Part shown: piece after piece, positions 35,374-43,991 of the stretch
How positions within the stretch are numbered: the stretch's first letter is position 1
Layout: each line of letters starts with the position of its first letter
DNA from: a virus
Length of the DNA: 64,000 nucleotides
Strand: one strand, 5' to 3'
Virus record (IMG/VR): IMGVR_UViG_3300026311_000001
Span: 1 to 64,000 of that record
Program-made: the position numbers and the translations under genes
The notes under the pieces: generated by a model
What the model saw: the letters and a program-made list of their open reading frames with translations, nothing else
Told to the model about the DNA's origin: nothing
Databases searched by the model: none

Positions 35374-35931
35374 ATGGGTAAAATATTAGGGGTCGATGAG
35401 AACGGTGTATACGTTATCGACAAATCACAGCCGGTAAAACTCGATTTAGGTAGTGGATTAAATCAGATGCCTCATGAAGACGGGTGGATTCACCAGGATG
35501 TATCTTCAGCAAATGGAATAGAGATTGTATGTGAGTGGAAAAAAATACCATTAGAATCGGGAATAGTTGATATATGCAGAATGGGAGACATAATAGAGCA
35601 TATATTCCCGGATGATAAGGATACCATATTGAAAGAATGGAATAGGATTTTAAAAATAGGGGCAAAAGTACATCTTACAACTCCAAACTTTGACTATTCA
35701 TGCAGGGAATACACTCTTGGAAGAATGACGTTACATGAAGCACAACAAAATCTTTACGGCGACAGGATGAACCAATGGTCAATTCATTGGGGAACATATA
35801 CATTATCAACACTAAGAGAAACTTTAGAAAAATACGGATTTGGAGAAATAGACTTTAGTGAATCTCCGGGAGAAAAAAATTGTCCGTGGTGGATTGTTGC
35901 CAACTTTATTAAGATTAATAATGTTCACTAA
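35374..35931 (+). CDS. class I SAM-dependent methyltransferase
   Basis: VKLDLGSGLN (motif I), DICRMGDIIEHI, LKEWNRILKIGAKVHLTTPN (post-II/III). Confidence 0.7.
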   Translation: MGKILGVDENGVYVIDKSQPVKLDLGSGLNQMPHEDGWIHQDVSSANGIEIVCEWKKIPLESGIVDICRMGDIIEHIFPDDKDTILKEWNRILKIGAKVHLTTPNFDYSCREYTLGRMTLHEAQQNLYGDRMNQWSIHWGTYTLSTLRETLEKYGFGEIDFSESPGEKNCPWWIVANFIKINNVH

Positions 35932-35940
35932 TATCTAAGA

Positions 35941-36597
35941 ATGTCTAAAACAATAGCACTTATCATTAATTGGAATAGGCTTGAATATCCTAAAAACATG
36001 GCCGACTGGCTGGCTGAAAACGGGACTGTTGAACCAATAATAGTAGACAATGGCAGCACTTATCCACCGCTTTTAGAATATTACAAAAAATGTCCTCACA
36101 AAGTAGAGATGCTTAACGCCAATTGGGGGCCTGCCGGAATATTTTTATGTGGTGTCCTTGAAAAGTACGGAGTATCAGAAAATTTCATAATAACTGATTC
36201 TGATCTCGATTTAACCGGAGTACCAAGTGATTTTTTACACATCCTACGACTAGGATTAGACAGGTATAGTTTTGCTCATAAATCAGGATTCTCTTTAAAA
36301 ATAGATGATTTACCTGAAAACGAACTAAAAGAATATGTCCTTCAATGGGAGCGACCGGCGTGGGGCAATAAATTAGATAGTCAATTTTATTCAGCATATA
36401 TTGACACTACTTTTTGTCTTTGCAGAAAGATTTATAATGATTTCCCATCGGTAAGATCGGCTCCGCCGTATCAGGTTCGACATTTACCGTGGTATTTAAC
36501 CAAAGAAAACATCCCTCATGACGAAAAATACTACCTTGAACATACATCGTCATGTAGTGCATATGCAGAAAGATTAAAACTAATGTTAGGAATATGA
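35941..36597 (+). CDS. glycosyltransferase family 2-like
   Basis: ALIINWNRLEYPKNMADWL....EPIIVDNGSTY is the typical GT2 N-terminus. Confidence 0.55.
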   Translation: MSKTIALIINWNRLEYPKNMADWLAENGTVEPIIVDNGSTYPPLLEYYKKCPHKVEMLNANWGPAGIFLCGVLEKYGVSENFIITDSDLDLTGVPSDFLHILRLGLDRYSFAHKSGFSLKIDDLPENELKEYVLQWERPAWGNKLDSQFYSAYIDTTFCLCRKIYNDFPSVRSAPPYQVRHLPWYLTKENIPHDEKYYLEHTSSCSAYAERLKLMLGI

Positions 36598-37004
36598 TAA
36601 AGATTTATTCTAACGTTGTGAAGGGATTGTTGCTACATCAAGTATGTAGATTTGAAGAAATACAAGAAGAGCGCACAAACCTATGTTCAGACAGTTCATT
36701 TATTCAATGTGCTGCTTTAAATATGAATAAAGGAAAGACATTTAAACCTCATAGGCACATTACAAAAAATCGCAATGAAATTTATACCCCTCAAGAGAGT
36801 TGGATTATATTAAAAGGGATCGCAAAAGTATTCTTATACGATACTGATGATTCATTATTAGCCACATACATACTTAAACGAGGAGATTCCAGTTTCACTT
36901 TTTATGGTGGCCATACGTATGAAATTATGGAAAACAATACTATTGTAATGGAATATAAGACAGGGCCATACGAAGGACAGTCAAATGATAAGATTTTCAT
37001 ATGA
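36594..37004 (+). CDS. cupin-fold protein (sugar-nucleotide ketoisomerase/epimerase-like)
   Basis: ..KPHRH....E.WIILKG.AKV.LYD......ILKRGD....GGHTYEI.. is a cupin signature. Sits among sugar genes. Confidence 0.45.
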   Translation: MIKIYSNVVKGLLLHQVCRFEEIQEERTNLCSDSSFIQCAALNMNKGKTFKPHRHITKNRNEIYTPQESWIILKGIAKVFLYDTDDSLLATYILKRGDSSFTFYGGHTYEIMENNTIVMEYKTGPYEGQSNDKIFI

Positions 37005-37043
37005 AAAAAGTTTTCATATATAATTGAAAATTATTTATATGAC

Positions 37044-40980: not shown

Positions 40981-41947
40981 ACCTACAATCATTGTTTACG
41001 CTGACTCAGATCATTCAGCGTGTTCATTCTGGAGGGCTATCGGCCCATTTAACGAGTTAGAACGGCAGGGACTTATAAATGTTATCCGTGGCACTTATAA
41101 CGAGTCATGGACTACATTAAGAAGAGCTGACATGGCTTTCTTTCAACGGCCTATGAGCAAGAGATGTAAAGAACAGATATTCATGGCCAAAGATGTCGGA
41201 TTGAAAATATGGATAGACTTGGACGACTATAGTGTTATCCCTGAATATCACCCGGTATTCGATGTTTACGAAAATGAATTTGATGAAAGATTGTTCTTTA
41301 AATATATGCTATTGGCAGATGCTGTCACCGTGTCAACTGAATTCTTAAAAAATCATTATCTGAAATATTCTAACGTAATTGAAATAGTCCCTAATGCTAT
41401 TAATGATTATTGGTTGTCATTCAAGAAACCGCAGCAGAACAATATAATTTTCTTAAGGGGCGGTGACCATCATGACCACGATATGTATTTTTACAAAAAC
41501 GCTATCATTGAACTTTCCAATAAGCACAGCATGAAAGTTATTATATGCGGAAGCAATCCTATTTACTTTCAACAGGAAATTGATAATTATTCCTATGCAG
41601 GGAACTTTAACCTGCACAGTTATTTTGCTTATATACTCAGGTTCAAACCAGCTATCTTTGCCCTGCCATTCATCAACTGTGAATTTAACAGGGGCAAGAG
41701 TAATATAGGATTTTTGGAAGCTACACTTGCCGGAGGGACATCTTTAACCCCTTCATGGTATAACTTAGATAAGTATAGTTTTTCTTATTCGGACTACGAT
41801 ACCTTTTATAGTAATCTGGAAGAAATGATTATCAATCCGGAACTATGCAAAGAAAAACATAGCAATGCCGTTAAACTGGTTAAAGATGAATATCTTCTAT
41901 CTAATGTTAATAAAAAACGAATAGACATAATCAAAAAACTTATATGA
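40970..41947 (+). CDS. putative glycosyltransferase (fold unassigned)
   Basis: 325-aa ORF translationally coupled within the GT run. No clear motif. Confidence 0.3.
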   Translation: MATKPTIIVYADSDHSACSFWRAIGPFNELERQGLINVIRGTYNESWTTLRRADMAFFQRPMSKRCKEQIFMAKDVGLKIWIDLDDYSVIPEYHPVFDVYENEFDERLFFKYMLLADAVTVSTEFLKNHYLKYSNVIEIVPNAINDYWLSFKKPQQNNIIFLRGGDHHDHDMYFYKNAIIELSNKHSMKVIICGSNPIYFQQEIDNYSYAGNFNLHSYFAYILRFKPAIFALPFINCEFNRGKSNIGFLEATLAGGTSLTPSWYNLDKYSFSYSDYDTFYSNLEEMIINPELCKEKHSNAVKLVKDEYLLSNVNKKRIDIIKKLI

Positions 41948-42735
41948 GGTCACTAATAGCCATAGCAGTATACGATACTGACGACAACAAAAGAACTGAG
42001 TATACTATCAAAACATATGAGAGTGTTACGAGAACGATATTTGATGACACTCAGGTATGTTTTATAGATAACGATTCATGCCTTAGAACAAAGGAGTTTT
42101 TAAAGTCTGTACAATCAGGTGACCTCAAGGTAGATGTTATCACTAATACATCTAACATAGGAACCGCAGAAGCCATTAATAAAGCATGGTATAAGTACAA
42201 AGATATCCCTTATAAGATTAAACTGGATAATGATGTTGTATTTCATGAACCTGGATGGGTTGAAGATATGATAAGATGTTTCGAGTTAAATCCTGAAATT
42301 GGCATTTTAGGGCTTAAAAGAAAGGACTTGCCTAATGAGCCGTCATCAGAATCCTATCCGACAAAATTAGCTTACCTGAATCATTCTTTAGGGGATAAAT
42401 GGGATTTTAAGAACGTAGTAGAATATTGCGAAGACATTATCGGCACGTGCCTTATGTTTAACCCTGAATTGTTTAATAAGATCGGATACCTTTATCAGCC
42501 TGGATCGTATGGGTTTGACGATGTATTAGCCTGTGCCAGATCGCTTAAAGCAGGGTTCAGGAACGCTTTCTATCCGTCTGTTGAAATAGATCATATTGAC
42601 ACAGGAGAAACAGTTTATGCTGACTGGAAAAGAAAGTATGCCGGAGTATACCTGCCTAAGATCGGGGGAATAATAAGTGAATATAGTTCAGGAGAAAAAT
42701 CTATTCACTATAATCCGTTTGAAAATAATCAATAG
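41944..42735 (+). CDS. glycosyltransferase family 2
   Basis: [12 protein letters not shown]...........VCFIDNDS...T.EFL.., KLDNDVVF (DxD), GFDDV. Confidence 0.65.
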
Positions 42736-43672
42736 TCCGTATTAATCCTTCTCTTAGGTTAATTTTAGGATTCCAATTTAAAATGTTTTTCGCAAGTGTA
42801 ATGTCTGGCTTTCTTTGCTTTGGATCATCGAAGGGCAAGTCAGTATAGATAATTTTAGATTTCGACCCTATCAAGTTGATGATTTCAACGGCTAAATCAT
42901 TAATGGTAAACTCTACCGGATTACCTATATTTACCGGATAATTATAATCTGAGTTCATTAATAATATCAAGGCGTCGATAAGGTCTGAAATATATTGGAA
43001 ACTTCTTGTCTGATTACCGCTTCCATAAACTGTAATATCTTTGTTCTGTAATGCCTGTACGATAAAGTTTGATATTACCCTTCCGTCATCATGCCGCATA
43101 TTTTCTCCGTATGTATTAAATATTCTGGCAATTCTAATGTCAACATTGTTTTGTTTATGGTAATCCATGAAAATTGTTTCAGCGCAACGCTTTCCTTCAT
43201 CGTAACAGCTACGGATGCCGATGGTATTTACATTGCCCCAATAGGATTCTTTTTGAGGGTGGATTTCCGGGTCACCGTATATTTCGCTGGTAGATGCCTG
43301 TAATATTTTGGCATGTACCCTTTTTGCTAATCCGCACATATTAACAGCACCTAAGACAGATGTTTTTATCGTCTTTATCGGATTATATTGATACTGGACA
43401 GGTGATGCAGGACAGGCTAAATTATATATTTCATCAACTTCCAGAAATATAGGTTGTGTTACATCATGCCTGATGATTTCAAAGTTGGGGTTATCTAATA
43501 AATGAATAATGTTTTTCTTTCTCCCGGTAAAATAATTATCAAGACAGATTACTTCGTTTCCTTCTTTTAATAGCCTATCGCAAAGATGTGAACCAATAAA
43601 CCCTGCCCCACCAGTTACAAGTATTCTTTTATAATATGAGTAGTTCACCGGTTCAAACATACTCAAACTCAA
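42701..43672 (-). CDS. UDP-glucuronate decarboxylase (UDP-xylose synthase-type SDR)
   Basis: [90 protein letters not shown]...DGRVISNF. Confidence 0.88.
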
Positions 43673-43991
43673 TACGGTTCACAGCAGATGTAGGCATTAC
43701 TCCCTTATGAGTTTTACAGAACATATCTATAAACTCATCCGGCCTCATCCCCGGAAATCCCTCCAAAATACATTCCTTTTCAGTTATGCAGAATAATGCC
43801 TCAGAACGGGTTGAAACAATCCTTATCTGACAGATTTTCTTTATTTTCTCCCCCTTCTTTAACCCCTGACACTTTTCAACTGCATTGACAATCTCTCCTG
43901 GTTTTAAAAACCACCATCCGTTACGCCGGGTAACTGTTTTCGTCTTTTCTCTCACCTGATTAGGTGTAATCATAAATGACATATTTCTCAT
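43653..43991 (-). CDS. ASCH-domain protein
   Basis: [28 protein letters not shown]...[20 protein letters not shown] resembles ASCH/PUA-like domains. Confidence 0.5.

Follow-up and report, generated by a model that had tools for sequence, protein, structure and literature searches.

Gene content and extent of the cluster

The window analysed here is a stretch of 64,000 nt of viral DNA, positions 1 to 64,000 of the record IMGVR_UViG_3300026311_000001, and carries at 35374-43991 a cluster of genes for nucleotide-sugar synthesis and glycosyl transfer. All eleven sugar-pathway open reading frames (ORFs) listed in an initial annotation of this DNA were recovered at the same coordinates, ten of them on the plus strand and one, encoding the UDP-glucuronate decarboxylase UXS, convergent to them (Table 1). 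Taken together they very probably provide two nucleotide-sugar branches that feed five glycosyltransferases (GTs) and a methyltransferase.

The ten plus-strand genes (35374-42735) overlap by 4-11 nt or are separated by gaps of at most 82 nt, the terminator scan revealed no internal terminator within the run, and a strong bidirectional hairpin precedes it; on these grounds we read them as one operon. The hairpin parts a small ORF (34821-35012) from the transcription unit of the cluster and forms its left boundary. Upstream of the first gene a TAnnTTTG match (TATATTTG) is present at 35319-35326, which may represent a Bacteroidota -7 box; a scan for sigma-70 promoters was uninformative, with 42 sites versus about 46 expected. 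UXS and the 112-aa ORF upstream of it constitute a unit convergent to the plus-strand operon, and the 3' ends of UXS and the last plus-strand gene (GT2b) overlap by 35 nt. The operon is covered by contigs from four metatranscriptome runs, with a depth about half that of the adjacent genes at 28-33 kb. Depth is strongly uneven elsewhere in the region, ranging from 0.8 to 78, which favours real RNA rather than carried-over DNA, although contig depth is a poor measure that neither times expression nor fully rules out DNA carry-over. Just left of the operon, at 34640-35303, a 63-aa ORF on the plus strand and a 94-aa ORF on the minus strand meet at a strong bidirectional terminator. Contig depth in this segment was 31-78x versus 4-12x for its neighbours in three of the four runs, and an Rfam search of the highly expressed 34.6-35.3 kb returned nothing significant.

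Table 1. Coordinates of the cluster genes and of further features in the window.
Feature	Position	Strand	Support and remarks
Small class-I S-adenosylmethionine (SAM) methyltransferase (MT), 185 aa	35374..35931	+	Methyltransf_11 20.6 bits vs cutoff 21.2; phrog_5399 E 2e-4
ORF2, predicted divergent GT-A-fold glycosyltransferase, 218 aa	35941..36597	+	Predicted fold
WbuC-family cupin, 136 aa	36594..37004	+	TIGR04366, 42.8 bits vs cutoff 42
Left-handed beta-helix N-acyltransferase, AntD-like, 173 aa	37087..37608	+	Hexapep E 2e-9
Short DegT-type pyridoxal phosphate (PLP) enzyme, predicted minimal sugar aminotransferase, 228 aa	37598..38284	+	PF01041 E 9e-11
GDP-mannose 4,6-dehydratase (Gmd), 318 aa	38281..39237	+	PF16363 E 9e-115
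Probable GT-A glycosyltransferase, 268 aa	39234..40040	+	Glyco_transf_7C E 5e-4, sub-cutoff
GT2 glycosyltransferase GT2a, 315 aa	40033..40980	+	PF00535 E 8e-10
Probable GT-B-type glycosyltransferase, 325 aa	40970..41947	+	phrog_7162 'glycosyltransferase' E 8e-29
GT2 glycosyltransferase GT2b, 263 aa, last plus-strand gene	41944..42735	+	PF00535 E 6e-11, PF13712 E 8e-9
UDP-glucuronate decarboxylase / UDP-xylose synthase (UXS)	42701..43672	-	E 9e-127 to human UXS1 structures 2b69, 4gll
112-aa protein	43653..43991	-	Upstream of UXS, same direction; only match phrog_11705 (unknown function) E 1e-4
Bidirectional hairpin terminator	34998..35024		10-bp stem, 6 G-C pairs; terminator scan and sequence
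Hypervariable segment	35457..39941	+	~3.5 kb of other sequence in sister phage
Capsid candidate, 492 aa	20146-21624	+	After portal and scaffold-like protein; no PHROG or cultured-phage match
Three large proteins predicted to be exported (454, 841, 584 aa)	27252-28616, 29427-31952, 31940-33694	-	Sec signal peptides
Four TnpB (IS605 OrfB / Cas12f-like) genes	22850-23974, 44322-45515, 47075-48229, 50443-51651	-	In one phage genome
DUF7666 Ser-rich repeat protein	45952-47082	-	~17 tandem copies of a 27-nt repeat (46231-46697), 9-residue SGDRSASQA-like units
DNA methyltransferases: two C5-cytosine, one MT-A70, one N6/N4	55002-55946, 57883-58476, 59796-60629, 62344-63423	+	A fifth (N6_N4) just past right window edge

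A large terminase (14154-16472) and a portal (16522-18897) were identified in the window together with lysis genes, and the sole cultured relatives of the terminase are Flavobacterium, Cellulophaga, Tenacibaculum and Maribacter phages with ~24% identity; the DNA is thus that of a phage, with Bacteroidota as the most likely host group. The window further holds four TnpB copies and several DNA methyltransferases, and for replication it encodes only an initiator, a helicase loader and an AAA_25 ATPase. Near-identical sequence is present in metagenomes from bioreactors, anaerobic digesters, landfill, groundwater and wastewater; the phage is abundant in a bioreactor sample, at about 60x depth in run X1, and a nucleotide search with the cluster gave no match among GenBank phages. 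The right end of the 64-kb ENA contig is the exact reverse complement of window positions 26-166, the 166-nt unitig at the window start has double depth and adjoins a further contig of 19,351 nt in the run with full coverage, and a contig of 83,872 bp also carries window proteins. Consequently the genome comprises ~84 kb, of which ~19 kb, probably holding tail genes, lie beyond the window. For this reason all statements on absence refer to the window, where Pfam marks cover the called genes across most of the length. An inverted repeat of at least 141 nt bounds the 64-kb segment, and the segment between the copies might be invertible.

Enzymes of nucleotide-sugar synthesis

The dehydratase assignment is borne out not only by the strong PF16363 match but also by full-length alignment with the PDB GMDs 1n7g and 1rpn (E about 1e-93), while the score against TIGR01472, 379 bits, is under the equivalog cutoff of 415. 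The neighbouring DegT-type enzyme is exceptionally small: canonical members have about 370 aa, and of these ~48 internal residues and the entire C-terminal small domain are missing here. A family search yielded >6,500 matches, the best 120 of which are 226-329 aa long (nearly all <265 aa) and 56-73% identical to the window protein, its own entry excluded. No variation was seen at K140, K141 and D117 across the family alignment. The counterpart of K141 in GDP-perosamine synthase is the Schiff-base residue Lys186, and D117, which stands in an I-x-D-x-A context, is by family motif presumably the PLP-binding Asp. A large family of similarly short members with invariant residues argues for a conserved enzyme family and not for a fragment or remnant. 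Its predicted model (predicted local distance difference test score, pLDDT, 89; predicted template modelling score, pTM, 0.86) gave sugar aminotransferases as top Foldseek matches, including 3bn1 and 3dr4, with a template modelling (TM) score of about 0.6 over the query, and GDP-perosamine synthase, DesI, CalS13 and ArnB are among the proteins matched.

AntD, whose substrate is dTDP-4-amino-4,6-dideoxyglucose, turned out to be the best guide to the third enzyme of this branch. The protein that had initially been called a hexapeptide acetyltransferase matches, in addition to Hexapep, the NeuD/PglB/VioB N-acetyltransferase family of NCBIfam as nearest subfamily (E 9e-13), and its best solved relatives, by >20 orders of magnitude, are the PDB entries 3vbi-3vbp (E 3.5e-28, residues 4-162). 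Of these, 3vbn is AntD, the N-acyltransferase of D-anthrose biosynthesis (Kubiak & Holden 2012). The perosamine-type logic proposed in the initial annotation, leading from dehydratase to aminotransferase to N-acyltransferase, is strengthened by the AntD match, the aminotransferase fold and the conserved lysine; which sugar is made, what the cupin does and that the short aminotransferase is active are inferred.

Homologues of the cupin (33-53% identity) adjoin a short DegT and Gmd in six loci, which suggests an obligate partner of these two enzymes. It may act on the 4-keto sugar as an epimerase or isomerase, and the sugar product could then differ in stereochemistry or in where its keto group sits. 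No sequence relative was found for it in the PDB, and the ketoisomerase/epimerase role originally given to this protein lacks support.

UXS is unambiguous, with residues 14-320 of the query aligning to chain residues 27-333 of human UXS1, and the expected supply of UDP-xylose is thereby upheld. Its true start is likely the ATG at 43660, giving a protein of 319 aa, the length also returned by the gene caller.

Glycosyltransferases and methyltransferase

The first gene of the operon encodes a protein with an LDLGSG motif that is 41% identical to two methyltransferases in the cluster of a 121-kb phage contig (L026) and 49% identical to its allele in a sister phage (L035, L036). Weak on its own, the methyltransferase call is supported by the homologues in L026 and L035, which match methyltransferase families; the protein is probably a sugar O- or N-methyltransferase.

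ORF2 is one of about 1,700 family members, all of them lacking a Pfam domain. It has no Pfam, PHROG or PDB sequence match, and a profile search against the PDB was negative. Its AlphaFold model (pLDDT 94.9) matched TarP, TarS and SpsA in the PDB by Foldseek (E 4e-5, TM score about 0.4), TarP being the closest solved structure. In BFVD the nearest viral structural relatives are giant-virus proteins, namely a Fadolivirus protein (TM score 0.79, 28% identity), a CroV protein (0.75) and Mimivirus L138 (0.63). D86-x-D88 and D36-N37-x-S39 are invariant in the family. For the 39234 protein, with its sub-cutoff match, a sister allele of 41% identity matches both Glycos_transf_2 and Glyco_transf_7C. 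GT2a represents a small family (35 proteins at E<=1e-10); its identity is 97% to the sister-phage protein and 43% to that of L026, and the corresponding values for GT2b are 92% and 38%. The family of the 40970 protein comprises 2,674 representative clusters, and over nearly its full length the protein is 24-26% identical to the paired GTs gp163/164 of phi92 and related E. coli phages. Its GT-B fold is unconfirmed, with no PDB profile match, a faint Glyco_trans_4_4/WsaF_C signal (Pfam on 46 members) and an hhalign probability of 1.7% against phage GT1 proteins.

Four GT2 enzymes and one unassigned probable GT had been named initially. The Pfam GT2 cutoff is passed by 40033 and 41944, whereas 39234 remains sub-threshold, 35941 is of GT-A type by predicted fold, and 40970 is linked to GTs via phrog_7162 and phi92 only. 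The ASCH label attached to 43653-43991 is not supported, since searches of Pfam (E<=5), NCBIfam and the PDB sequences all left this protein without a match. No actinophage matches were obtained by tblastn of ORF2 and GT2a against phages, and when ORF2, GT2a and the capsid candidate were compared as proteins with cultured phages, there was no match, or only N-terminal GT2 fragments were matched.

Mosaic structure and variation between sister phages

The cluster is a mosaic of two modules. One comprises the cupin, the short DegT and Gmd, in some cases with a hexapeptide transferase, and is found again in many contigs that are phage-like and unrelated. Cupins there show 33-53% identity, short DegTs 49-60% and Gmds 54-66%, and the cassettes are embedded in islands of 15-20 kb that hold GT and methyltransferase genes and lie beside clamp-loader, PD-(D/E)XK and helicase genes. 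More distant short DegTs occur in the Flavobacterium phage Immutovirus and the cyanomyovirus S-SCSM2R (35-42% identity in cultured phages). A profile scan of 185,579 species genomes detected the short DegT at just eight loci, seven contigs of metagenome-assembled genomes and one Bdellovibrio chromosome, which marks the family as essentially viral. Bdellovibrio and relatives (L030-L034, 43-49% identity) are the sole cellular lineage in which it was found repeatedly; no cupin or Gmd homologue was detected near the short DegT in these five loci, and in the chromosome of the isolate Bdellovibrio sp. HCB2-146 (L033) a UXS-like short-chain dehydrogenase/reductase (SDR) of 40% identity is located nearby.

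The second module, made up of MT, ORF2, GT2a and GT2b, is shared with L026 at 38-55% identity. There it is located directly upstream of the portal gene, on the same strand and inside the structural module, and a full-length DegT, a GNAT and an SDR take the place of the short cassette. Further versions of the cluster are present on two more contigs (L039, L040). In L039, an 80-kb contig of a related phage, a NUMOD3 homing-endonuclease gene splits the homologous cluster, and the counterpart of GT2b carries a fused Endonuclease VII domain (9264-10022, 11943-13223).

Most instructive is the comparison of the window phage with its sister. The flanks are 98-98.5% identical in nucleotides (orf235 and orf63 100% as proteins), yet in one contig (X19) 35457 and 39941 are joined through 3,504 other letters, and a contig from another run (X9) has a different junction, 35969->39972. 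Within the replacement, MT, ORF2 and the 39234 GT are alleles of only 41-49% identity, and the amino-sugar cassette has given way to a second methyltransferase and a 301-aa SDR. GT2a, GT2b and UXS are kept at 92-99.7% identity (UXS 99.7%). Deeply divergent alleles in a near-identical background look like loci under diversifying selection, and the allelic swap points to such selection acting on the glycan.

Proposed function and alternative explanations

In agreement with the initial annotation, a Kyte-Doolittle scan (scanning window 19, threshold 1.6) found a hydrophobic segment in none of the cluster proteins; the hydrophobic proteins of the window are only small holin-like ORFs and three signal-peptide proteins. 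Its further observation that Wzx, Wzy, an ABC transporter and a phosphoglycosyl transferase are missing likewise stands for the Pfam marks, among which there is also no ligase, ~19 kb of the genome being outside. Thus the window contains no O-antigen or capsule locus of the Wzx/Wzy- or ABC-dependent kind, and the cluster is not of the Gtr/Oac seroconversion type, as it encodes no membrane proteins and its GT2 matches lack the GtrB membrane anchor. The lack of flippase, polymerase and initiating transferase does not by itself discriminate in favour of attachment to virions, because soluble GTs can use host lipid-linked intermediates and host export, and the part of the genome outside the window lessens its weight further.

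The locus is most likely a phage-owned operon of soluble enzymes for glycan assembly in the cytoplasm, and the reading that we tentatively put first is that the glycan may be placed on a phage protein, probably of the virion. Gmd would convert host GDP-mannose into GDP-4-keto-6-deoxymannose, which the minimal PLP aminotransferase, always accompanied by the cupin, would aminate, and the AntD-like beta-helix transferase would N-acylate the amino group to a GDP-4-acylamido-4,6-dideoxyhexose of perosamine type. UXS would provide UDP-xylose from host UDP-glucuronate, and the five soluble GTs together with the SAM methyltransferase would assemble a methylated hetero-oligosaccharide. The acceptor, the weak step of the scheme, would be a phage protein glycosylated in the cytoplasm, most likely one at the virion surface, so that the glycan would form an exposed coat, and exchange of the sugar-supply cassette between near-identical phages would vary its composition. 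We favour the virion because of the Mimivirus-like make-up of the operon, the giant-virus relatives of ORF2, the placement of the second module among structural genes in L026, the cassettes of Immutovirus and the cyanomyovirus, the lack of export machinery in the window and the precedent of the mycobacteriophages.

Several points weigh against this reading. No acceptor protein has been pinpointed, and the sequence scan found no virion protein in the window with a Ser/Thr-rich C-terminal tail like that of mycobacteriophages; only the capsid candidate has a Thr-rich N-terminus, a Thr/Ala/Gly-rich tail of 27 residues (PTTATIGGAAVTTPTSNMTVGNTGAT). Most tail genes are outside the window and the structural proteome is therefore incomplete. 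The operon is divergent from the neighbouring lysis/exported-protein operon and not part of it, and the analogous GT blocks of Immutovirus-like and phi92-like phages adjoin replication genes, not structural ones. No pathway step could be assigned to the cupin, the activity of the short aminotransferase is unproven because its C-terminal domain is missing, and the giant-virus parallels are mostly analogy and not homology.

A less likely alternative is remodelling of the host envelope glycans, a role routinely proposed in the literature for phage GT islands. Here the soluble GTs would act at the cytoplasmic face on undecaprenyl-linked precursors of host lipopolysaccharide, capsule, exopolysaccharide or O-glycan, and the host flippase and ligase or oligosaccharyltransferase would export the altered glycan, resulting in superinfection exclusion or in progeny no longer re-adsorbing; glycans on the phage's own exported proteins might also be changed. 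What keeps a host-surface role alive is above all the set of three large genes directly left of the cluster. Their products carry Sec-type signal peptides and would hence be exported and not assembled in the cytoplasm, with the signal peptides of the 27252, 29427 and 31940 proteins ending just before Gln (VFG|QT, AYS|QS, GYS|QN), as is the pattern in Bacteroidota. The 841-aa protein contains Laminin_G_3, polysaccharide lyase 14 and GDSL esterase domains, and in the sister phage its counterpart has 686 aa, lacks GDSL and is 64% identical; this lyase and the left half of the cluster thus both change between sister phages while the surrounding DNA is 98-100% identical, a co-variation resembling the diversification of O-antigen loci that tracks host strains. 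The sequon D[ST][AILVMT] of Bacteroidota O-glycosylation is enriched in two of the three exported proteins (10 versus 3.6 and 6 versus 2.6 expected by shuffling, the count of 10 being reached in 5 of 2,000 shuffles). Furthermore TarP, the closest solved structure to ORF2, is a soluble transferase encoded by a phage, and its target is the wall teichoic acid of the host. On the other side, known seroconverting systems consist of one to three genes, usually for membrane proteins, while five GTs and two sugar pathways, sufficient for a complete oligosaccharide, are found here without an initiating transferase. The flippases and polymerases of a host, moreover, mostly accept no repeat unit but their own. 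Neither an integrase nor any other lysogeny module was seen in the window, where the sole recombinase is a 99-aa resolvase fragment beside TnpB, and a lytic phage would have little time to benefit. Finally, the near absence of the short-DegT cassette from cellular genomes argues that it is no borrowed host O-antigen module.

Rather improbable, in our view, is a different acceptor, either a free, lipid-linked or small-molecule-linked oligosaccharide or a phage protein outside the virion, for instance the Ser-rich DUF7666 protein; the glycan would then serve neither as a virion coat nor to convert the cell surface. The idea gains from the fact that no acceptor has been pinpointed so far and from the position of this protein, 2 kb away on the UXS strand, with a repeat number that varies between assemblies (376 aa versus 274 aa). 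Anthrose, moreover, the sugar made with the help of AntD, the closest solved relative of the window acyltransferase, decorates a repeat-rich surface glycoprotein. However, unrelated phages of Pseudomonas, Salmonella and Vibrio in which glycan clusters are missing commonly carry the same N-terminal DUF7666 domain, so that a dedicated acceptor is not supported; a mobile TnpB element separates the repeat protein from the cluster, and nothing positive speaks for any particular alternative acceptor. A direct repeat of 50 nt flanks the TnpB element in question (44209-45574), which is missing from one contig (junction 44208->45575). That it disrupts a longer gene was considered and rejected, as its removal restores no longer ORF.

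Very little speaks for hypermodification of DNA, in which the GTs would decorate hydroxymethylated bases as a protection against restriction. Phage GTs that build multi-sugar glycans on 5-hydroxymethylcytosine DNA are known (Pyle et al. 2024, through a citing paper), and the phi92-type relatives of the 40970 protein adjoin replication genes. As opposed to this, no thymidylate-synthase-like hydroxymethylase, dNMP kinase, dCTPase or DNA polymerase was found in the window, no GT matches the T4-type DNA glucosyltransferase families, and two of the four DNA methyltransferases in the window are C5 enzymes that need ordinary cytosine, with a fifth methyltransferase just past the right edge; the initial annotation had wanted DNA modification excluded, and it can be regarded as unlikely on this evidence. 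An Acb2/Tad1-hairpin protein, likely an anti-CBASS/Thoeris sponge, is encoded at 56605-56913 on the plus strand, and together with the methyltransferases it likely forms a dense anti-defence arm.

A passenger or artefact, be it host O-antigen DNA at a prophage edge (which the initial annotation had considered), an assembly chimera or a decaying island, might be suggested by the much shortened aminotransferase and the mobile TnpB elements nearby, and is refuted by a gene order recovered with phage genes on both sides in independent assemblies (ENA, Logan, JGI samples), a GC content of 0.35-0.36 equal to that of the remaining window, intact ORFs with overlapping stops and starts, conservation of the short DegT as a family and coverage by contigs from four metatranscriptome runs.

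Novelty and meaning

Virus-encoded glycan clusters are already known, and GT islands of phages are often reported without a function. To our knowledge, only giant viruses and a few mycobacteriophages have so far been shown to encode glycan synthesis of their own, and of the large GT islands repeatedly noted in environmental phages we know of none that has been assigned a target. Our literature search found no description of the short DegT family or of a perosamine-type pathway in phages. What appears to be new is the compact, fully soluble operon in a phage of ~84 kb, the cassette of short DegT, cupin and Gmd as a module that is very large and occurs nearly only in viruses, two more large GT families for which Pfam has no model, and the cassette swap between sister phages.

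Carried beyond this one genome, the virion reading would mean that tailed phages of Bacteroidota and others from aquatic and bioreactor habitats coat their virions with complex glycans of their own making, using the minimal aminotransferase, cupin and Gmd along with non-Pfam GTs, and switch 'glycan serotype' by cassette exchange. We regard this generalisation as doubtful for now; if true, virion glycosylation would, given the >6,500 short-DegT members, be a widespread aspect of phage biology that has been overlooked. With eleven genes, all for soluble proteins, the locus is a compact and tractable example, and it contains three uncharacterised, very large families (short DegT, ORF2 and 40970). 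The acceptor would decide between two biologies, a virion glycan coat or phage-driven rewriting of the host surface, and the minimal aminotransferase with its cupin partner is an enzymological curiosity that can be tested directly.

Comparison with known systems

Among cultured phages, the four-GT block gp163-166 of phi92 comprises two proteins, gp163 and gp164, that are homologous to the 40970 protein. Unlike the window cluster it has no nucleotide-sugar genes and is located beside primase/helicase and DNA polymerase genes. GtrABC, Oac and TarP are phage-encoded modifiers of host surface glycans, and TarP, a prophage transferase, is soluble like ORF2; GtrABC and Oac, on the other hand, are membrane proteins of temperate phages that add one residue or group, whereas the window cluster has no membrane proteins and would build an oligosaccharide. 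The bacterial pathways for GDP-perosamine (Gmd, Per, PerB) and anthrose (AntC, AntD) use the same chemistry of 4,6-dehydration, C4 transamination and N-acylation. They differ in that the window aminotransferase lacks ~140 canonical residues, that a cupin is added, and that Wzx, Wzy, WecA and WbaP are all missing from the window.

Homologous short DegTs are found in Immutovirus, in S-SCSM2R, where the genes are annotated for 'cell-wall synthesis and modification', and in uncultured contigs, with 35-42% identity for the cultured phages and about 60% for the metagenome contigs. In the uncultured contigs the short DegT adjoins cupin and Gmd as in the window, in one of them (L020) also the hexapeptide transferase, and many GTs and methyltransferases accompany it. 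These aquatic phage islands differ from the window operon by their size of 15-20 kb, their genomes of 160 kb and above, their location beside replication genes and their other GT sets.

The mycobacteriophages (Che8 and related) have their own GTs and carry glycans on capsid and tail-tube proteins (Freeman et al. 2023, as summarised elsewhere). Like the window phage they are tailed phages with their own GTs and no export machinery, which makes them a precedent, while they have fewer genes (two GTs in Maravista) and C-terminal acceptor tails, of which no equivalent was seen in the window. The tblastn with ORF2 and GT2a revealed no relationship in sequence to these systems.

The closest functional parallel is the fibril-glycan cluster of Mimivirus (R132-L143), with the 4,6-dehydratase R141, the aminotransferase L136, the PglB-like N-acetyltransferase N-L142, five putative GTs including L138, and O-methylation of an amino sugar (PMC9614988). 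The window operon matches it function for function, both being soluble and self-contained with a route to an N-acyl-4-amino-4,6-dideoxyhexose, about five GTs and methylation. PBCV-1 in turn encodes GMD, a xylosyltransferase domain and sugar methyltransferases (PMC9614988). In contrast to both viruses the operon relies on a GDP carrier and mannose, not on UDP-glucose, on a truncated aminotransferase family and a cupin, and belongs to a virus of a bacterial host; most of its components are analogous and not homologous, and the window system is known from its genes alone. The combination that characterises virion glycosylation in giant viruses and mycobacteriophages, virus-encoded GTs without export machinery, is nevertheless what was found in the window cluster.

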